Origin: a virus
Lineage: Duplodnaviria > Caudoviricetes
Reading direction: 5' to 3' (one strand)
Virus record (IMG/VR): IMGVR_UViG_3300035498_000698
Coordinates: 7,863 to 71,862 of that record
Length of the DNA: 64,000 nucleotides
The first letter of the stretch is position 1, and each line of letters begins with the position of its first letter. Below are positions 2,532 through 56,651 of this stretch, piece after piece. The notes beneath the pieces were generated by a model. It saw nothing but the letters and a program-made list of their open reading frames with translations. It was not told the DNA's origin and ran no database searches. The position numbers and the translations under genes are program-made.

Positions 2532-3461
2532 CTATTTATTTCCTTTTGTACTATTAAAACCAAATTTATCACTTTGATATAATTCTATCCAAAATTTTTC
2601 TTTTTCATTTAACTGATTTCTTGAACACTCTTCCATTAGTTCAAAACTAAATGACCAAACACCATGTTCTTGCATTGATTTATAAAGCTTATTAGTTGCG
2701 GAAGCTTCAATTCCAAGGCCACATTTGACGTGGTCTTTCCATCTTTGAGCTACATCAACGCTTTGACCAATATAACATTGTTGAGTTTTTAAATTTGTAA
2801 TTTTATAAATACCACAAATTATTTTAGTTCCTAAAATACGATTGCACATTTCAGTAGTTTGCTTCTGAAAATATTGTGTCCATATTAACTTACTAAGAAT
2901 AACAGGTTGATTTAAAGTTAATTTAATCGTATTTAATTTAATAACATCTTCTAATTCAAGAGGTGTTAAAGAAAGTTTGTAGAATTGAAGATTTTCTTCT
3001 TTTTCTCGTTCGCGGAGTTGCGCTTGAACGCCCGCACTGAGAGTATTTTTTAACGTTTCTAATTCATCCTTATATTTTTTTTCTTGCGTATTTAAAAAAT
3101 TAACTTTTGCTGAATATTCTTTTTCAACTTTCTCATATCTTTTTTCTAACGTATATACATATTGTTCACTTGCATAATTAAGATTATCTTTATAAATTTT
3201 TATTTCTTCAGAAATTCTATTTTTTTCATTTTCATATAAAGTATTAATTCTTTCTTTTTCTTTTGTTATATCTTCTAATAATTTTATTCTCTGCAAGGAA
3301 AGATTATTAATATCTTCTTGTTTTTGTTTTAAAAGTTTTTCAGCTGCGGTGATCTCTTTTAATTTATTATTTTGAATTATAGAAGCTGTTTTATATTTCT
3401 TTAAACCTATGTATAAAATAATTATACTTATAATAGTTAAAATAATACTTAAATAAAACAT
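2532..3461 (-). CDS. membrane-anchored coiled-coil protein with C-terminal GIY-YIG nuclease domain
   Basis: N-terminal hydrophobic helix, long coiled coil, CGIYKITN..CYIGQSVD..RW..H and GFN motifs. Confidence 0.75.
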   Translation of the reverse strand: MFYLSIILTIISIIILYIGLKKYKTASIIQNNKLKEITAAEKLLKQKQEDINNLSLQRIKLLEDITKEKERINTLYENEKNRISEEIKIYKDNLNYASEQYVYTLEKRYEKVEKEYSAKVNFLNTQEKKYKDELETLKNTLSAGVQAQLREREKEENLQFYKLSLTPLELEDVIKLNTIKLTLNQPVILSKLIWTQYFQKQTTEMCNRILGTKIICGIYKITNLKTQQCYIGQSVDVAQRWKDHVKCGLGIEASATNKLYKSMQEHGVWSFSFELMEECSRNQLNEKEKFWIELYQSDKFGFNSTKGNK

Positions 3462-15350: not shown

Positions 15351-15629
15351 TTATTTATTTTTCTTGACAGCTGTATGTCTAAAGAAGCTTCCAATTACTC
15401 CAAGAGTTCCGCAAAAAAGAGGGAGAGCTTCTTTATTAAAAGATAAACCTAACATAGATAAGTCTTGAATAAAAGTATCTCCAAAAGTTATTTTAATCAG
15501 CCAGCCTGTGATCCATCCACAAATAAAACTAATAAATGGAGAAAAAATTAATACTGCAACTACCAACATAATAAGTCCAAAGCAACTAAGAGCTTCTACA
15601 GTATCATTATCATAATCATAATTTTTCAT
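15351..15629 (-). CDS. membrane protein
   Basis: Several hydrophobic segments. Confidence 0.6.
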   Translation of the reverse strand: MKNYDYDNDTVEALSCFGLIMLVVAVLIFSPFISFICGWITGWLIKITFGDTFIQDLSMLGLSFNKEALPLFCGTLGVIGSFFRHTAVKKNK

Positions 15630-16177
15630 TTATTTAATTCCTTTCTGATATCAGTTAATATATTTTCTAAAAGAATAGGATAACAATTATGAGCATCACA
15701 TTCAACATGGTAAATTAATCCTTTATTAAAATCAAGAAATTTATCTTTAGTATGAGCATGTCCACAAATATTAATAGTTCTTCTATTTAAAGGTTTATTT
15801 TCATCAAAATTTGAAGTTAAGCATGGATAATGAGTTAAGAAAAAGTTTTGTTTTTCAATATTTAAAAATTTTGCATCGCACACTTCTACAACATTATAAC
15901 AATTTTTATAAAGTTCCATTCTTTTATCTGTATCATGATTACCGCGGATAATATGAATTTTTCCTTTAAGCTGTTTAATGCATTTAATTCCTTCTTCATT
16001 ATCATTTAAAATACAATCTCCAACACAATAAACATCATCGTTTGGTTGAACTACTGAATTATAATTTTTAATAATAGTTTGATTCATTTCATATTGATTT
16101 TTAAAGCCTCTAGGTTCATAAATAAAGGGCTGTGAATGGCAAAAATGCCAATCGCTAGTAAGCCAAATATTTGACAT
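15626..16177 (-). CDS. calcineurin-like metallophosphoesterase
   Basis: SDWHF, VGD, RGNHD, THYP, GHAH motifs. Confidence 0.9.
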   Translation of the reverse strand: MSNIWLTSDWHFCHSQPFIYEPRGFKNQYEMNQTIIKNYNSVVQPNDDVYCVGDCILNDNEEGIKCIKQLKGKIHIIRGNHDTDKRMELYKNCYNVVEVCDAKFLNIEKQNFFLTHYPCLTSNFDENKPLNRRTINICGHAHTKDKFLDFNKGLIYHVECDAHNCYPILLENILTDIRKELNK

Positions 16178-16179
16178 AT

Positions 16180-16671
16180 CTATATCTCCTTTTCTATAAT
16201 TTGAATTGGTTTTTCATCTTCTACAATATAAATTTTATTAAAGCCTTCTTCAAACTCTGGCGCTTCTGTTTGAATAAACATGCGGCGAATGACCTCTTTA
16301 GGAACATAAGACCGAGTTCCGCGCCTATTTTCATTTCTTTTTAAACATTCTAATAATGGAGTTTTAATCCAAATAATTTCAATAGAATCTGGTTTTTCTT
16401 TAATATTTTTTAGTAATTTTGCTCTTGAAGCTTTATTCAAATGGGTAGCGTCCGCATATACATTAACACCAAGTTTTAGATTTTCATTAATCTGTTTAAT
16501 AAATTCTTTATACACTTCTTTTTCTTTTGAAAAATATTCTTCTCCATCTGCTACCATAGAAAAGCGTATTTTATCTCTTGAAATAATAATATCATCTTCT
16601 TTATAATGATTTTTAATCCAGGTGCTTTTTCCCGATCCTGGAGTTCCACAAAGTAAATATAAAATTGCCAT
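16180..16671 (-). CDS. polynucleotide kinase-like P-loop kinase (AAA_33)
   Basis: CGTPGSGKST, SRDKIR, DATHL, CLKRN..R motifs. Confidence 0.85.
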   Translation of the reverse strand: MAILYLLCGTPGSGKSTWIKNHYKEDDIIISRDKIRFSMVADGEEYFSKEKEVYKEFIKQINENLKLGVNVYADATHLNKASRAKLLKNIKEKPDSIEIIWIKTPLLECLKRNENRRGTRSYVPKEVIRRMFIQTEAPEFEEGFNKIYIVEDEKPIQIIEKEI

Positions 16672-17733: not shown

Positions 17734-19002
17734 TTAGTGGTTTAATAAATATTTTCGAGAAACATTTTTAAAACTGAAAGTTGGATCAGTTGTTTTATAA
17801 TATACAAAACCTTCACGAACACAATCTTTTTGTCCTTCACATACAGAAGGATTATAGTAACCATCTGCTGACTGTTTGAACTCTTCAAAATCATTTGGAA
17901 GAATGTAATTTTCGCAAATAATAGGAACTACTTCCATATTATATTTCTTCCATACTTTTGCCGCCTCAATAATAGACATTCTTCCATTAATGCTATCAGT
18001 CCAATGAAAACAATAAAAATGAGTTTCAGACAGCTTATGAGGATTTTTTTGGATTCTTGGTGCGCAAATCTCTCCCTGCCAACATACAAAAGTAGCATCT
18101 GAATGATTTAAAAGCCAATCTTTCATTTTATTTTCAATGTCATATTTTTTAGCGACTTCCCAATAATAATTATCTGAACCAAAAAAGCATTCTTGATTTT
18201 CCTCTTTCATACGAACATTTCTGCTACATACATAAAACTCAAATTTATTTCTACTTTTTCTTTCAAGAATATAAGTTCCTGAACTACCATCACACTTTTG
18301 AGTTACAATAAATGGAGTTTTATCTTCAAGGATCCAGGCTATATTTTCGCATCTCTCCTGGTCGGTTTTACTTACACCTGGGAATTTTCCGACAGGCCAG
18401 TCCTTTCCTGTATCTTTCTTTTTATTTCCCATAAAGAGAAATAAGATTTTTTTAGCAAAGTCATGCTTCATACACCAACGACCAAATTTACTTCTAGCTA
18501 ATTTTGGATGCCTAGACATCATTGATTTATATTTAGCATTTGGATCAGTTTTAGCTTTACGCTTATTGTCCTCAACTTCTAAATAAGTTACGCCAAGAAT
18601 TTCAGTAAGTCCTTCATGTTCGATCTCTTTACCTAAATTAATTCTATATTTTAAGCTTGCTAGCCAAGAAGGAAGATCTCCATCATCATTTTTAAAATCA
18701 TCTAATGACATAAGAAGACCTTGAGAGTAGAAACCTGGATTTTTGCCTCCAAAAGTATAACGCTGAGTGCGAACTTTACCATGATATTTTTCCATAAAAG
18801 CAAATTCTGGTTTGGAAGTATCTACTTTAGAATCAATTTCAAAATAGATAGCATAATCTCCCGCCTTAAAAGTGCCTTTTCTTACCATAACTTTCCATCC
18901 ACCAATTATTGCGGCTTCGCAGTTATCAGATCCTTGAATCTGATGAATTGCGTCAATTTTTACTACATATGCAAGCTCGCGCACTCCATCTTTATTAATC
19001 AT
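17734..19002 (-). CDS. RNA ligase, DRB0094 family
   Basis: RELAYVVKIDAI N-terminal domain, KTDQER, TQKCDGSS (KxDG), QGEI, REGFV, FKNVSRKYLL. Confidence 0.85.
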   Translation of the reverse strand: MINKDGVRELAYVVKIDAIHQIQGSDNCEAAIIGGWKVMVRKGTFKAGDYAIYFEIDSKVDTSKPEFAFMEKYHGKVRTQRYTFGGKNPGFYSQGLLMSLDDFKNDDGDLPSWLASLKYRINLGKEIEHEGLTEILGVTYLEVEDNKRKAKTDPNAKYKSMMSRHPKLARSKFGRWCMKHDFAKKILFLFMGNKKKDTGKDWPVGKFPGVSKTDQERCENIAWILEDKTPFIVTQKCDGSSGTYILERKSRNKFEFYVCSRNVRMKEENQECFFGSDNYYWEVAKKYDIENKMKDWLLNHSDATFVCWQGEICAPRIQKNPHKLSETHFYCFHWTDSINGRMSIIEAAKVWKKYNMEVVPIICENYILPNDFEEFKQSADGYYNPSVCEGQKDCVREGFVYYKTTDPTFSFKNVSRKYLLNH

Positions 19003-19760: not shown

Positions 19761-19981
19761 TCAAGAAAATTCTTTATATCCTTCTAATTTTAATTCTGCT
19801 AAATCTGAAAAATCAAAAGTTCCTTCAAAATATTTTTCTTCAGCTTTTTCATCAAGATAATTCCAAAGACTATCATAATAATATTCCCAATTTATTACTC
19901 CTCCTTGACCAAGAGCAATAAATCTTTCCTTATTTCAAGCAAAATTAATAATTCTTCCTCTGAAATAATATAATTTTTCAT
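19761..19981 (-). pseudogene. frameshifted small gene (MKNYIISEEELL..LE / ERFIALGQGGVINWEYYYDSL..)
   Basis: 221 nt from ATG (coupled to the upstream TGA) to TGA, one base short of 74 codons; the two halves read as one protein after a single-base shift. Confidence 0.6.
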
Positions 19982-20787
19982 AATTTAGTAGGAACCTCAC
20001 TTTCCATAAAATCTGTTAATTCAACAGCATAATCGTTAAATAACATTAACCTGCGGCGGCCGTCTGTACGTGGATAGTTACGATATTGGTGATAATGACC
20101 CCAGCACCATGCGCGATAGTCAAGATTATATTCAATTCCGCCAAGATATCTTTCCATTGTTTTATCTACCATTGATTGATCTACAACAGATAAAAATAAA
20201 TCAGTTGGTTCAAACATAATTGGACAAGTATGTGAAAGAACTAAATCACAAGTCCAATTACTAGCTGTCAATAAAGAAAGTCCACGATTTCTCTCTCTTT
20301 CTGATAATTGTTCTTGTTCAAACCAACTAAATCCTTTTTGCAATCTATAAAATTTATCAATAGAATAAGCACCAGGAATTGTGAGGACTTTTAAAACATC
20401 TTTATTATAAGATTTATATGGAATTTCATAAAAAGTTACATAATCCATTGCATATTTAATATATGGATAGTCATTTTCTACCCAAACATATCCATTCCAA
20501 AATTTTTCTACATGCCAATTCTCTTGATGTTTTTCAGCAACAATACTAGGTCTTTCTTCATGATTTCCGCGTATAATAAAATATGTAAGTGGATATTTAC
20601 CTAATTTCTTTTTAAAATTTTCATCTCGGTGATTAAAAAAATAATTTGCGCCAAAATCTCCTAATACAATAAGTACATTTTCTGTGCTTTCTTGATCTTT
20701 ATATAAGGATGGATTCCGTTGACAAAAATTTTGAACTGGATGAAAATCTCCATGTAAGTCACCAATTAAATAAATTTTTTGTTCCAT
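19978..20787 (-). CDS. calcineurin-like metallophosphoesterase
   Basis: GDLHG, LGDFG, RGNHEER, SHTCP, GHYH. Confidence 0.9.
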   Translation of the reverse strand: MEQKIYLIGDLHGDFHPVQNFCQRNPSLYKDQESTENVLIVLGDFGANYFFNHRDENFKKKLGKYPLTYFIIRGNHEERPSIVAEKHQENWHVEKFWNGYVWVENDYPYIKYAMDYVTFYEIPYKSYNKDVLKVLTIPGAYSIDKFYRLQKGFSWFEQEQLSERERNRGLSLLTASNWTCDLVLSHTCPIMFEPTDLFLSVVDQSMVDKTMERYLGGIEYNLDYRAWCWGHYHQYRNYPRTDGRRRLMLFNDYAVELTDFMESEVPTKL

Positions 20788-40129: not shown

Positions 40130-41620
40130 TTATTTTACAGCTGCATATCTCTCTGATGTAATAGCTTCAAGGCAAAGATCCCATCCAGTTTTACCAGTGA
40201 GAATCTGTTTAAAGATACTAGGAGATGCGCCGCTTACAAATGAAACATTTGGACCAGCATCAAGGATAGTGTCTTTAGAAGCATTAACATTCCAATAAAC
40301 TAACTTAGGCATTTTTAATCCACAAGCTTCCCATTCTTTTCTAATCCATTCCATTTCAGTACACGTCCTGCTAGAGTCCCAATAACCATATGACATACTA
40401 TCAATCTGCATATCAGAAATAATAACAACAGTCTCTAATCTGTCTTCTGGTTTTGTTTTTAAACTAACATTTTTTAAAAGATCAAAAGTAGCTTTAATAT
40501 TGGTGTTTTCACATAAATTAGTCTTATAAATTCTACGAACTTTATCTACAAAGTCTACTCCCTGAATATGAATTAACTGCGGTTTTGAAGAGAAACTAAT
40601 ATAGTGATCTTTAAAAGGTCCACCAACTCGTTCTGCACAATACATTCCAAGACCAATAGCCATATTAATTGGAGCAGATGCCGAAGTCCCAGTCATACTT
40701 CCCGATGTGTCTACAACGCACATCATTTTGCAAGGTTTTCCTTCAAGATAATCTTCAAGTCCATTCCAATATTTTTCAAGCATTGCTCTGTCTATATCAG
40801 AAAGGTAATTAAAACGATAACTCCATTTATCTCCGCGTTCAGTAGCTTTATAGACTACTTCATAAGGATAAAGAGTTTTAGCGTTAACTGTAATATTTTC
40901 ATCTTTTGCAAAAGTTTCATATTTTTTAGCAATAATATCTCTACGAGCAAAAGCGTTCTTATAGATTAATCCAGCCTTTGATGGAATCTTATCAAATTCA
41001 ATTTCATCCCATCTATTTGCAGACATAAGTCTTTCAAGTACATTAATTCTCTTACGCAGTTCAGAAAGAACTTTTCTATACTGTCTGTGCGTAAAGCCAA
41101 GATATGATCTTACAATATTTGCTAATCTTTTAGTCTCTGCGGAAGATGCATTCTCAGATGGAAGCCATTTTGCAAGCAGAGATGGAGTTTTGCACTGAAC
41201 ATCAAGAGCTAATTGTTCCTTAATAAAGCCAAGGGCATGTTTTTCTAGCGGAGTGCCAATACAAGAGTAAAGTACATCGTCCCATCTACGATAAGTAGGA
41301 ATGTTCTCTAAGTTGCGGGCTGCCGCCTCAGGATGCTTATTAGCCAGCCATTTGAAACATGTACGAAAGAATCTACGCTCTCCCTGACCGCCGCGACAAT
41401 CTGCAATATAAAATAAACATTTAAGCGCTAAGGTCTCATCCTCTTCAAATGCATTTTTAAAAAGTAGAATACAATCTTCATCACTTCTTTTGCGATAACT
41501 AGCGCCCAATGCAAAAAGATCATATACCGCAGAATTGGTAGTTTTATGAGCCAGCGCGCCATTTTCAGTATAAGTAAAGTTAGTTGCGTTTTTAAGATTT
41601 GTCATAAATGAGTTTTCCAT
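40130..41620 (-). CDS. DUF2828-family protein (helical N-domain + vWA; Ro60/TROVE-like architecture inferred)
   Basis: TENGALAHKTT, DCRGGQGERRFFR, RRWDD, LAKWLPSE; MIDAS residues DTSGS, NTN, ISDMQ; LVYWNV. Confidence 0.8.
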   Translation of the reverse strand: MENSFMTNLKNATNFTYTENGALAHKTTNSAVYDLFALGASYRKRSDEDCILLFKNAFEEDETLALKCLFYIADCRGGQGERRFFRTCFKWLANKHPEAAARNLENIPTYRRWDDVLYSCIGTPLEKHALGFIKEQLALDVQCKTPSLLAKWLPSENASSAETKRLANIVRSYLGFTHRQYRKVLSELRKRINVLERLMSANRWDEIEFDKIPSKAGLIYKNAFARRDIIAKKYETFAKDENITVNAKTLYPYEVVYKATERGDKWSYRFNYLSDIDRAMLEKYWNGLEDYLEGKPCKMMCVVDTSGSMTGTSASAPINMAIGLGMYCAERVGGPFKDHYISFSSKPQLIHIQGVDFVDKVRRIYKTNLCENTNIKATFDLLKNVSLKTKPEDRLETVVIISDMQIDSMSYGYWDSSRTCTEMEWIRKEWEACGLKMPKLVYWNVNASKDTILDAGPNVSFVSGASPSIFKQILTGKTGWDLCLEAITSERYAAVK

Positions 41621-42548: not shown

Positions 42549-42618
42549 TCTCCTAAAGAGGATTCGAACCTCTATCCTCTTAGATCAATCAGCGCTCTAA
42601 CCATTAAGCTATTAGGAG
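42549..42618 (-). tRNA. tRNA-like gene with defective anticodon arm
   Basis: Intact acceptor, D and T arms; only 20 nt between D and T arms and no 5-bp anticodon stem. Confidence 0.65.
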
Positions 42619-43755: not shown

Positions 43756-44029
43756 AAAATGAGAACTTAACCTAAGCTTTTTTGTCGTTAGAAAACATTA
43801 TCTTGTTCTCAAGGTGGGTGGATTAAAGATCTTAATATCTAAACGCTGTCCGCCAGCAGCTCAGCTTTTATCGTATCTAACTAAGTAACGGAATTATAAC
43901 GCTTTTTCTGCGGATGGTGTCGATATATTCGCAAAGAGACTAGCCTCACTCTTTAAAAGGTTCGCGAACTCGATCAGAGTAACTTTCCATCATTATATTT
44001 TTATTAAATTGGTTTCCAACCAATTAAAC

Positions 44030-44088
44030 TGGCGGTCTAGGATTTGAACCTTCAGAGGGTCCAGTACTACCAGCCTACACCAACCGCC
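44030..44088 (-). tRNA. 59-nt tRNA-like element lacking an anticodon arm
   Basis: GGCGGUU/GACCGCC acceptor, GGUUCAAAUCC T-loop, D-loop-like GGUAG. Confidence 0.45.
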
Positions 44089-44095
44089 AATAACT

Positions 44096-44528: not shown

Positions 44529-44534
44529 AAACAC

Positions 44535-44642
44535 AAGACGCCTTGTTTCTTTTGCTCTACCAATTGAGCTATTTTCAATTTTATAATAACTTGAAAAACA
44601 GGAATCGAACCCGCAACTTTCTATTTTTGCAGTGTGCGTCTT
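44535..44642 (-). ncRNA. ACWGCAA-family RNA 5: circularly permuted tRNA mimic (YrlA-like Y RNA)
   Basis: AAGACGC/GCGUCUU stem, ACACUGCAA, then T arm, closed 7-bp acceptor stem, UA, D arm in that order. Confidence 0.75.
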
Positions 44643-48331: not shown

Positions 48332-49145
48332 CTGGCTAGACAGGACTTGAACCTGCAACAACGCGGTTAATCAAAAATTAAGATTTGAACTTAAACCAAT
48401 GCCCATTGTTCATCAGTAAAACTATTTATATCCTTTTTTCTACTTGGTAAATTTTCAGTCTTACACCATTTAGTAATTGCTTTATCACTAACTCCATACT
48501 GCTCCCCTATTTTTGTAAAAGGAACTGTCCTAATAAGCTGTTTTAAAGTATCTCTATCTGGTCTTTCAACTATTCGAGATTGTTTTTTAGAACAATCTTC
48601 ACATAAACCACTTTTAGAATATCTTGTAATTTTTTTACCACAATTTGAACAAAAATATATTTTTTTATCTGATTGTTGTCCTTTGCTTTCTCTTAATTGA
48701 TTAGCAATATTTTCATCATAAACTTTATATTTATATAATTCTTCTTTAGAAAAAAGTTTATCGTGAATTTCTCTATGACAATTCGCACAAACTAAAATAC
48801 ATTTTTTTACTTCTGCTAAATCTTTTTCCAAATCATGGCAAGTTCCATTAGAAGAAATACCATATAATTTTTCTTCAGCATTGATATGATGAAATTCTAA
48901 AGCTGAATTAGTCTTATGATAACCACATATATTACACTGATTACCACATACTTTAATCAAATTATCTTTTCTTCTTCTTCTATAATTACTTGTTTCTGTT
49001 GCACCCATATTTTCACTCCTTTATTTTTCATATATAATATGAAAAATAAACCAATATGGTTAATTACTGTTGTCCAATGTTCATTTATGCTACTTAACAC
49101 CATTTTCGCACAGCCGCGTGCTACTACCAACTGAGCTACATCCCA
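48332..49145 (-). tRNA. tRNA-Asn(GUU) interrupted in the anticodon by a 740-nt HNH-encoding insert
   Basis: 5' half 49110-49145 and 3' half 48332-48369 join to ACGCGG-CUGUUAA-CCGCGU; G73. Confidence 0.75.
48391..49008 (-). CDS. HNH homing endonuclease within tRNA-Asn
   Basis: CNICG..ALEFHH..CILVCANCHREIH; zinc ribbon; C-terminal HTH. Confidence 0.85.
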   Translation of the reverse strand: MGATETSNYRRRRKDNLIKVCGNQCNICGYHKTNSALEFHHINAEEKLYGISSNGTCHDLEKDLAEVKKCILVCANCHREIHDKLFSKEELYKYKVYDENIANQLRESKGQQSDKKIYFCSNCGKKITRYSKSGLCEDCSKKQSRIVERPDRDTLKQLIRTVPFTKIGEQYGVSDKAITKWCKTENLPSRKKDINSFTDEQWALV

Positions 49146-49534: not shown

Positions 49535-49861
49535 TTAAACACCGTATCTATACCCGTAATGCAAAAGTAAATCTTCAATATTTTTTCTTCCAACTGGATT
49601 TAAACTATGACATTCAAATCCATAAATAGGAAGTTCATTCTCCACAATATATTTAGCAACATCATAACCTGTTTGTTTACATCCTAAATCGTGGTCAAGA
49701 GCAACATAAACTTGTGAATCGCGGCAATACTGCTCTAAGGCGGAAATAGCCTGCCTATAAGTTCTACATATCACGATTTCGCCCATCCACTTCATATAGG
49801 TAGGTACATCTCTTTCATCATCTACCCAAATTAAAGTTTTTATTTTGCTCATAATTATCAC
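49535..49861 (-). CDS. cyclic-phosphate-processing receiver-like domain protein
   Basis: IWVDDER..CRTY..ALDHDLG..GYDVAK..HSLNPVGRKNI pattern. Confidence 0.7.
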   Translation of the reverse strand: MIIMSKIKTLIWVDDERDVPTYMKWMGEIVICRTYRQAISALEQYCRDSQVYVALDHDLGCKQTGYDVAKYIVENELPIYGFECHSLNPVGRKNIEDLLLHYGYRYGV

Positions 49862-51868: not shown

Positions 51869-51964
51869 AAGATTTCTCCTTTCAAAAAAGTTAATCTACC
51901 ATATATCAAATTTTCTTTGCTCACATACTCTGTGCATATTATCTTCTCCTTATAAAATTTATAA

Positions 51965-52089
51965 TGACGAGAGTAGGACTCGAACCTACATGGCACTAAG
52001 CCGCCGGATTTTAAGTCCGTGAGTGCCGCTATGGTTTATATCTAAACCCAGATGGTTCCGGTGCGTCTCTCCAATTCCGCCATCTCGTC
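51965..52089 (-). tRNA. tRNA-Leu(UAA) with a 41-nt insertion in the 5' strand of the anticodon stem
   Basis: Removing 52016-52056 restores an 84-nt cloverleaf CCGGA-CUUAAAA-UCCGG. Confidence 0.75.
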
Positions 52090-52091
52090 AA

Positions 52092-52208
52092 AAAGAAGGG
52101 TGGGGCTCGAACCCACGACAATCAGCTTGCCCAAAAAAGATTGCAGTTACAGGTTATTTCTAATCTAATTTTAATTGGCTGATGCTCTCCCAGCTGAGCT
52201 ACCTTCTT
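52092..52208 (-). ncRNA. tRNA scaffold whose anticodon loop is replaced by a 51-nt insert containing UAACUGCAA
   Basis: AAGAAGG/CCUUCUU acceptor, canonical D and T arms, UCAGC/GCUGA stem closing 52127-52177. Confidence 0.75.
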
Positions 52209-55786: not shown

Positions 55787-55873
55787 TTAAAATCTATCCT
55801 CCTTTCTGCGGATTCTATCCATTTTTTGTCTACGATTGTCAGTTCTAGCAGGCTTTCCGCCAGGTAACTTTTT
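55787..55873 (-). pseudogene. orphan 3' fragment homologous to the end of gene 56652..56849
   Basis: Reads KKLPGGKPARTDNRRQKMDRIRRKEDRF* vs SPLRHGRPAREDTRKQRMERIKRKEKFDY*. Confidence 0.75.
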
Positions 55874-56579
55874 ATATCCATTGCCAATGGTATCCACCTG
55901 CACTTTGTCTTTTTCCGTTACAGACTCTTCCTATTGAAGAAGAATCTATACCAGTACACCTTTCAGCCTCTTTTGCAGAATCATATTCAATATTAGTTTC
56001 TATACATAAAACCTTAGATTTAGCTCTTTTCTGTTTTTTTATAACGATTTCTTCTTTTCCTGTATAATCTTCAATATATTTCCATAATAAAGCATTACCA
56101 TTTTTATCTTTACCTGCTGTCTTTATTTTCCCAGAACAGCAATCTCCTATGTGTTCTGCACCAGTTGCTTTTTTTGCAGAAGTTTCACTATCATAAATAA
56201 CACCAGTATTTAAACAAACAACTGACCTGCCTAATGTTTTAATATTTGATAATCTTATTTTTTCTTTATGTTCTTCTGTTAAATGTTGATTATTTCCACC
56301 TTCTCTTATATTATAACCATTTTGTATAGAATTATATTTTTCAATCCAATACCGTTCTCTTTCATTTAATTCATCATCATTAAGTCCACATTCTAAGATT
56401 TTATGTTCAAAATTATCCCACCCATATTTTTGAATAGCTCTATAAAAACAAGTGCATGTAGAATATAAGCTCCCTCCGCCCCATCTATGTTGTAATGTTT
56501 GAATTGTTTGTCCAACATATGCTTTTCCATTGATTTTATTAATGTGGACATAAATAATACCTTTACGATTTCTATTCAT
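55872..56579 (-). mobile_element. freestanding GIY-YIG homing endonuclease with NUMOD-type repeats
   Basis: GIIYVHIN..AYVGQT..RW, GYNI; two V.C..T...YDS...A repeats; start moved to 56579 by SD. Confidence 0.85.
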
Positions 56580-56651
56580 ATATATATAATATCTCCTTTT
56601 TATTGATATTATATATGAAATTAATGTCAAACCTGTTAAACAAGTTTGACA

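Follow-up and report, generated by a model that had tools for sequence, protein, structure and literature searches.

In the textbook view the introns of bacterial and phage tRNA genes are group I ribozymes; splicing of tRNAs by proteins is regarded as an archaeal and eukaryal process. Group I introns with homing endonucleases sit in the anticodon loops of several bacterial tRNAs, as in Synechocystis tRNA-fMet (I-Ssp6803I), tRNA-Leu(UAA) and Azoarcus tRNA-Ile. We describe here a tRNA-Asn(GUU) gene of a Caudoviricetes phage that is interrupted within its anticodon by a 740-nucleotide (nt) insert carrying an HNH homing-endonuclease gene. It lies in a 64-kb stretch (the window) of IMG/VR record IMGVR_UViG_3300035498_000698, a 71.9-kb phage contig with a completeness estimate of 47%. 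The insert shares the niche and the logic of the group I tRNA introns, as a presumably mobile element in an anticodon loop with a nuclease of its own, but it lacks both a ribozyme core and a terminal G, its non-coding part amounts to just 122 nt, and it is built on a tRNA-shaped scaffold. As read from comparison with its relatives, the element is an exactly tRNA-shaped unit, with no spare nucleotides, inside the anticodon. The reading that we favour, to which we give an even chance, is that this is a mobile tRNA-shaped element with an HNH gene, excised by RNase P and RNase Z, after which an RNA ligase reseals the host tRNA.

Several other systems share parts of this design. Transfer-messenger RNA (tmRNA), whose 5' end is made by RNase P, likewise has ends that form an acceptor stem and T-arm domain with a reduced D-arm, and likewise encloses an open reading frame (ORF). 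The insert is not a trans-translation RNA; what it encloses is a full 205-amino-acid gene with its own Shine-Dalgarno sequence and AUG; ARAGORN calls no tmRNA in the window, and a faint tmRNA match was seen in the 3' part of one relative. Free-standing homing endonucleases are known from phage tRNA clusters (T4 SegB and the T5 HNH F-Tfl enzymes), a niche shared with the HNH family of the window, but here a tRNA-like frame surrounds the gene, and both lie within a tRNA gene. Archaeal bulge-helix-bulge introns and split tRNAs are spliced by proteins, some of them at non-canonical positions. No bulge-helix-bulge was found in the insert, which folds as an anticodon stem, a 4+3-nt loop and then a 7-bp terminal helix; the insertion site is 35/36 rather than the canonical 37/38, EndA (PF01974) was not found in the contig, itself 47% complete, and the host setting is bacterial, with matches to Bacillota-like metagenome-assembled genomes. 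In the T4 Pnkp/Rnl1 system a phage ligase seals a break in an anticodon loop, and the window likewise has kinase, phosphoesterase and ligase genes; T4 Pnkp/Rnl1 repairs damage by a host nuclease, whereas the break here would be programmed and would have RNase P and RNase Z ends with no need for healing.

The only comparable tRNA introns that we found in the searchable literature are those of Lak megaphages, which were described as 'enigmatic', belong to no Rfam class and include one possibly encoding a tRNA; in that paper phage tRNA introns were stated to be previously unreported, no ORFs were given for these, and no mechanism was proposed (Devoto et al. 2019; PMC6784885). No later paper with a mechanism was found. 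Like the window's insert, the Lak introns lie in the anticodon loops of phage tRNAs and fit no Rfam class, and they may be tRNA-like in concept. In the one that was read, the Lak-A1 intron at L129:2974-3160, about 32 nt precede the inner tRNA-like part, which, unlike the frame of the window's insert, is not flush with the 5' exon.

The split tRNA-Asn gene and the known intron classes

All elements of the split gene read on the minus strand. The 5' exon (49145-49110, tRNA positions 1-35) reads directly as UGGGAUG-UA-GCUC...CGCGG-CUGU, and the 3' exon (48369-48332, positions 36-73) as UAA-CCGCG...GCAGG-UUCAAGU-CCUGU-CUAGCCA-G, with a discriminator G at 48332 and no encoded CCA. The anticodon stem CGCGG/CCGCG pairs 5/5, and joining the exons gives the loop CUGUUAA, that of an Asn tRNA with anticodon GUU. 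The original prediction, made from the sequence of the window, of a tRNA-Asn split by a 740-nt insert at 35/36 or 34/35 is confirmed; the insert (49109-48370) lies at anticodon position 35/36 and ends in GAU, and its boundaries follow from the tRNA-like pairing described below and from the 7-nt outer loop. The outer acceptor stem forms 4/7 pairs, with exactly the three mismatches that had been noticed (G4.G69, A5.A68 and U6.U67), and the joined exons of the window are not accepted as a tRNA by ARAGORN at its default threshold. A supposed D-stem defect of this tRNA (D-arm GCUC...GUAGC) was dropped, the same D-arm being present in the intact outer tRNA of the relative L150.

The HNH ORF (49008-48391) leaves 101 non-coding nt ahead of it and 21 behind, against about 100 and 20 in the original prediction. 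A 14-bp hairpin (49050-49020) adjoins the Shine-Dalgarno sequence, GGAG at 49019-49016, as had been reported; it has a z-score of -4.56, none of 200 shuffled sequences folds as well, and a hairpin around the ribosome-binding site recurs in relatives. The direct repeats said to flank the ORF are also present (12/14 and 9/9 identical), but they are two of eight short repeat families in 841 AT-rich bases, and hence weak evidence by themselves.

The first possibility to weigh is that the ORF overlaps the core of an ordinary self-splicing intron, be it group I or some other ribozyme. The last nucleotide of the 5' exon is indeed a U, as the U.G pair of a group I 5' splice site would need, and GUUAAGUAGC, near the 5' end of the insert, can pair with both exon ends in the manner of an internal guide. 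As a P1/P10-like guide this sequence was rejected, for in relatives it is a self-pairing, covarying D-like hairpin, and Rfam gave no match. No Rfam group I or group II model matched at E<=10 in the 13-kb region, in the whole contig or in 900 nt alone, and RF00028 gave no match at that threshold over the homologous inserts of 11 relatives. The same search did recover an RF00028 group I intron in the neighbouring tRNA-Phe of one relative (44.9 bits, L130:2964-3163), so it is able to detect such introns here. The final nucleotide of the insert is U in the window; in relatives it is U, C or the A of CCA, and nowhere is it the terminal G of a group I intron. Forms that lack an ORF measure merely 44-70 nt. 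The insert is, on the evidence of these searches, not a self-splicing group I intron, and we give almost no credence to a ribozyme of any kind; the prediction's reading that no group I core is evident has held. As a side observation, the group I-bearing tRNA-Phe (L130:2940-3240) lies about 0.8 kb from a tRNA-Asn with a tRNA-shaped insert, so that both types of intron occur in one tRNA cluster.

The tRNA-like frame of the insert and its relatives

Read from its two ends, the insert has the outline of a tRNA. Its first seven nucleotides, GCGAAAA (49109-49103), form an acceptor-like 5' strand that pairs 6/7 with 48377-48371 and covaries across 13 inserts; U8 follows directly at 49102, and then a D-arm-like hairpin, GUG-UUAAGUAG-CAU (49100-49087), whose 3-bp stem covaries (G-C, G-U and A-U; at the third pair G-C, A-U, U-A and C-G) around a conserved loop, UAAGNAN. 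Near the other end stands a T-arm-like hairpin, UUAAG-UUCAAAU-CUUAA (48394-48378), with 5/5 pairs and with the stop codon of the ORF (48393-48391) in its 5' strand. It is followed by the acceptor-like 3' strand UUUUUGA and a discriminator-like U at 48370 (together 48377-48370), without CCA and abutting the 3' exon. The interior of the frame, where a tRNA would have its anticodon and variable arm, is taken up by the hairpin at the ribosome-binding site and the HNH ORF. The T-arm-like hairpin had already been noticed; on this comparison it is one element of a complete predicted tRNA-like frame, which had been overlooked.

We collected 15 distinct inserts, 12 with an HNH gene (the window, L001, L130, L133, L141, L142, L147, L149, L150, L151, L153 and L203) and three without an ORF (L144, 44 nt; L249, 67 nt; L143, 70 nt). 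Each sits in the anticodon loop of a phage tRNA gene (Asn, Lys, Asp or Glu), and despite widely differing sequences they all have the same frame. The window's insert has the expected tRNA-like elements: an acceptor-like stem that covaries among relatives, a T-arm with a 5-bp stem, a UUCRANY loop and G53-C61, and a U8, a D-arm analogue and a discriminator. The acceptor-like stems include GGUAGUU/AAUUACC, GUCAGCU/AGUUGAC, GACGAAG/UUUCGUC and GAUUUAG/UUAAAUC. Among 13 distinct inserts the strands of one insert pair with each other at a mean of 6.4/7, whereas strands taken from different inserts reach 3.7/7, with full 7/7 pairing in just 1 of 150 such cross pairs; each acceptor position shows 3-7 types of pair. 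G53-C61 is invariant (13/13) while the remaining T-stem pairs covary, and all HNH-bearing inserts with a frame correctly placed by script have U at position 8; the frame of L151, which the script misplaced, was read by eye. Seven relatives carry a discriminator followed by CCA flush against the 3' exon.

When the boundaries of the inserts are set by the pairing of this frame alone, deleting what lies between them leaves a tRNA that ARAGORN accepts, with a 7-nt anticodon loop, in 12 of the 15 cases (Asn 7, Lys 4, Asp 1). Insertion is at 35/36 except in L147 and L150, where it is at 34/35. That a tRNA-like frame lies flush with the exon junctions is, as a prediction from this covariation, well supported. 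It is not a genuine tRNA gene: it has no anticodon arm, and its sole Rfam tRNA match (16.9 bits, where a tRNA gene would score above 29) joins the insert's 3' end to the 3' exon. With the ORF removed, the insert folds with its terminal helix, and ARAGORN draws it as a cloverleaf only at a lowered threshold.

The three ORF-less inserts bear on the origin of the element. The original prediction had the HNH gene enter a pre-existing small intron, which is plausible as far as these relatives of 44, 67 and 70 nt share the frame; an ORF-less ancestor of the window's insert is likewise a plausible reconstruction. A gapped-motif scan for further ORF-less forms gave one chance match in viral contigs and a single true match (L249) among 53 in metagenomes. 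For an insert-free allele, a scan for CGCGGCTGTTAACCGCG gave 114 viral stretches, none with the exons of the window. Further copies sought by a 16-mer were limited to three known relatives and chance matches, and by a 24-mer to two, and a neighbouring gene used as an anchor for relatives found nothing.

Proposed excision and rejoining, and the fate of the host tRNA

RNase P cuts 5' of an acceptor/T-arm domain and leaves the leader with a 3'-OH, and RNase Z, on precursors without CCA, cleaves just past the discriminator and gives the trailer a 5'-phosphate; a 3'-OH/5'-phosphate nick in an anticodon loop is a substrate for nick-sealing RNA ligases. Because the tRNA-like frame meets the exons exactly at their junctions, the candidate cutters are RNase P and RNase Z, and excision by these two enzymes followed by ligation can reasonably be proposed. 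The HNH enzyme would cut insert-free tRNA genes, and repair would copy the element in (homing). From the transcript of the split gene, RNase P would cut 5' of insert nt 1 and leave a 5' exon with a 3'-OH, and RNase Z would cut past the discriminator and leave a 3' exon with a 5'-phosphate, while the outer tRNA fold would hold the halves for a nick-sealing RNA ligase, for example a phage Rnl5-type enzyme, to close the anticodon loop. The excised RNA would be the HNH mRNA, with tRNA-like ends as in tmRNA. More tentatively, at somewhat less than an even chance, such elements may make up a third class of tRNA intron in bacteria and phages, neither self-splicing nor bulge-helix-bulge, cut by RNase P and RNase Z and joined by a ligase, in which the excised tRNA-capped RNA is the mRNA of a homing endonuclease.

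A candidate for the sealing enzyme is encoded in the window at 17734-19002 (minus strand). It is an Rnl5-type RNA ligase, of the kind that joins 3'-OH to 5'-phosphate, with PF09414 and a PHA02142 OB domain; it belongs to phrog_968 and matches the Naegleria RNA ligase 5COT (E 8.6e-23), and a role in resealing the tRNA would be consistent with this assignment. What appears to be an RNA repair kit, also on the minus strand, includes besides it a polynucleotide-kinase-like P-loop protein (16180-16671), a phosphoesterase (15626-16177) and a second phosphoesterase, a metallophosphoesterase (19978-20787). The original prediction proposed protein-assisted splicing by a phage ligase and polynucleotide kinase, and the ligase, kinase and phosphoesterases are indeed encoded; but RNase P and RNase Z ends are 3'-OH and 5'-phosphate, and therefore healing by polynucleotide kinase would be unnecessary.

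A version closer to that prediction would have another endonuclease leave a 2',3'-cyclic phosphate and a 5'-OH, which the phage kinase, phosphoesterase and ligase would then heal and seal. The repair genes of the window agree with it, as does a gene for a cyclic-phosphate-processing receiver domain (49535-49861, minus strand) that adjoins the split gene, between it and a tRNA-Trp. Neither a candidate endonuclease nor a recognition motif was found, however, nor a bulge-helix-bulge in the insert or EndA in the 47%-complete contig; repair kits of this sort are common in phages as a defence against anticodon nucleases, and the tRNA-like frame would be left unexplained. We consider this version improbable.

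A number of observations weigh against the RNase P and RNase Z reading. The T-arm-like hairpin has a z-score of -0.5, and neither it nor the D-like hairpin has folding-energy support, so that the support for them is comparative and not energetic. A relaxed single-sequence scan for nested frames in the AT-rich window gave 57 matches, 56 of them by chance, and the case therefore rests on comparison and not on the window sequence by itself. Pair 1-72 is mismatched in the subgroup of the window (G.A or A.A). Most RNase Z enzymes do not cut after A76, and the inserts that end in CCA would need their 3' cut there, which is not the usual RNase Z site. In three of the 15 cases, the window included, the insert lies between halves that do not form a tRNA, so broken hosts are tolerated. 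An ATP-dependent RNA ligase is present in the window and in 3/5 relatives, but none was found in a genome that is 100% complete and has two of the inserts; RtcB was not found in any of the five. The co-occurrence of ligase and insert is thus partial and not usable as proof.

In a further alternative, the HNH gene is a selfish insertion that is never rejoined: the tRNA gene is killed, its halves are debris, and the only use of the frame is to have the HNH mRNA freed from the tRNA-cluster transcript, through RNase P and RNase Z, and stabilised. The incompatible halves of the window and of two further copies agree with such a fate, as do the accessory nature of phage tRNA genes and the 2/5 relatives in which no ligase was found; the inserts are also more alike from copy to copy than their exons, a pattern that agrees with recurrent invasion of new alleles and not with long residence. 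Against it, the tRNA-like ends are flush with both junctions in 15/15 inserts, across four tRNA types and in both registers, 34/35 and 35/36, which the release of an mRNA would not need. The ORF-less versions of 44-70 nt are kept inside otherwise perfect tRNAs, and no second tRNA-Asn occurs in two relatives whose genomes are nearly complete. We judge an insertion without rejoining to be unlikely, while giving it real weight.

The copy in the window may itself be one that no longer yields a good tRNA. Its most similar insert is that of L003, with an HNH protein 97% identical, and the acceptor strand of the L003 5' exon, UGGCUAG, pairs perfectly with the window's CUAGCCA. In alignment with L001 and L003, the window's UGGGAUG...GUUGGUA, at positions ~4-22 of the 5' exon, is a patch that resembles L001, and both of its flanks resemble L003. 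The suggestion that the acceptor halves come from different alleles was right in that more than one allele is involved, but the boundary lies inside the 5' exon and not at the insert. Because only 4/7 acceptor pairs form, the spliced product of this copy would probably be a poor or defective tRNA. Incompatible halves also surround the inserts of L151 and L227. Chimeric exons of this kind are what homing into diverged alleles would produce if co-conversion were uneven, and the window copy may be the 'homing scar' that was offered as the other explanation of the locus, or a dead gene.

The mismatched acceptor could also be an assembly chimera, the real phage having matching halves; the contig is from a metagenome, and the related strains L001 and L003 come from sibling samples. 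A patch of ~19 nt with L003-like sequence on both sides is too short for a strain switch in a de Bruijn graph, and a second assembly holds an identical allele, chimeric exon included, on an independent 1.4-kb contig (L223), so the chimeric exon is not an assembly artefact and we regard this explanation as very unlikely.

If the tRNA is spliced as we propose, the route of splicing would be new, and so would the means by which a selfish gene is carried inside an essential RNA, the members of the family being framed so that universal tRNA-end-processing enzymes could excise them. If it is not, homing endonucleases would routinely destroy phage tRNA genes, and the tRNA-like wrapper would serve to free their mRNA from the cluster transcript. 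Either way the annotation of tRNAs in gut phages is affected, as default tRNA finders miss or misname the split genes; ARAGORN took an Asn gene for His, and Lys genes for Thr, Gln or Stop.

The HNH family and the tRNA cluster

The 205-residue product of the ORF has an HNH domain, a Cys4 zinc ribbon and a C-terminal helix-turn-helix, and with the His/Asn/His of a beta-beta-alpha-metal fold, CxxC ligands and a profile match it is predicted to be an HNH homing endonuclease. It matches phrog_2255 (E 7e-20), and seven more PHROG families annotated as HNH; the Pfam HNH models score under their cut-offs, and no relative of the HNH profile among solved structures is significant. The invariant residues of the family are C25, C28, H40, H41, N76, C74, C77, H78 and H82 (CxxC...HH...N...CxxCH...H). 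At E<=1e-10 the protein has 2095 homologues, and its relatives in IMG/VR number 472; in 79 of the best 80 of these 472 viral relatives, tRNA genes lie within 1.2 kb of the HNH gene. More distant members of the family are free-standing between tRNA genes. The 35%-identical homologue of Prevotella phage Lak-A1 is also free-standing, 4 nt behind an intact tRNA-Asn, whereas the HNH gene of the window is inside its tRNA gene. In Lak-A1 (L129:1743-2592) the homologue reads TAG as Gln and is followed by an unannotated tRNA-like stretch of 117 nt with a long internal insert.

Another sequence, L004, has two further interrupted tRNA genes. At L004:2488-3345 the interruption, at 35/36 or 36/37 of a tRNA-Gln(UUG), is an ORF with a PD-(D/E)XK domain (PF11645, the I-Ssp6803I family) and a zinc-ribbon and helix-turn-helix tail as in the window's HNH protein, 57% identical; only ~16 and ~9 non-coding nt lie beside this ORF, and the insert is without a tRNA-like frame. 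At L004:646-1368 a tRNA-Tyr(GUA) has ~630 nt with two small ORFs between its anticodon stem and T-arm, while its anticodon arm is intact and its acceptor strands pair 7/7.

The split gene belongs to a cluster of ~20 tRNA genes at 42.3-52.3 kb on the minus strand. The nearest full-length HNH relatives in binned genomes are on contigs of ~150 kb labelled Clostridia, Acutalibacteraceae, Erysipelotrichaceae and Lachnospiraceae, and because of these labels the host is probably a gut member of the Bacillota. Some other genes of the cluster are unusual (all on the minus strand): ARAGORN gives a tRNA with a two-base anticodon at 42549-42618 and a 94-nt tRNA-Gln(CUG) at 44000-44093, and two adjoining tRNA-like genes have inserts in or beside the anticodon arm, a Leu(UAA) gene at 51964-52090 (41 nt, with a CGGA repeat at both insert ends) and its neighbour at 52092-52208 (44 nt), for which no reading yields U33. 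T-loop and acceptor-like frame are lacking from both of these inserts. Also within the cluster, at 44532-44642 (minus strand), is a sub-threshold match to YrlA, a Y RNA-like RNA (36 bits), and a similarly weak match occurs in L149. Near it in the window lies a gene for a DUF2828/DUF7788 protein (40130-41620, minus strand; phrog_850, 'RNA-binding protein'), and the two may constitute a Ro/Y-RNA-like module. The phage has several genes of homing-endonuclease type, among them two for GIY-YIG endonucleases at 2532-3461 and 55872-56630 (both on the minus strand), one of which has an I-HmuI-like NUMOD tail.

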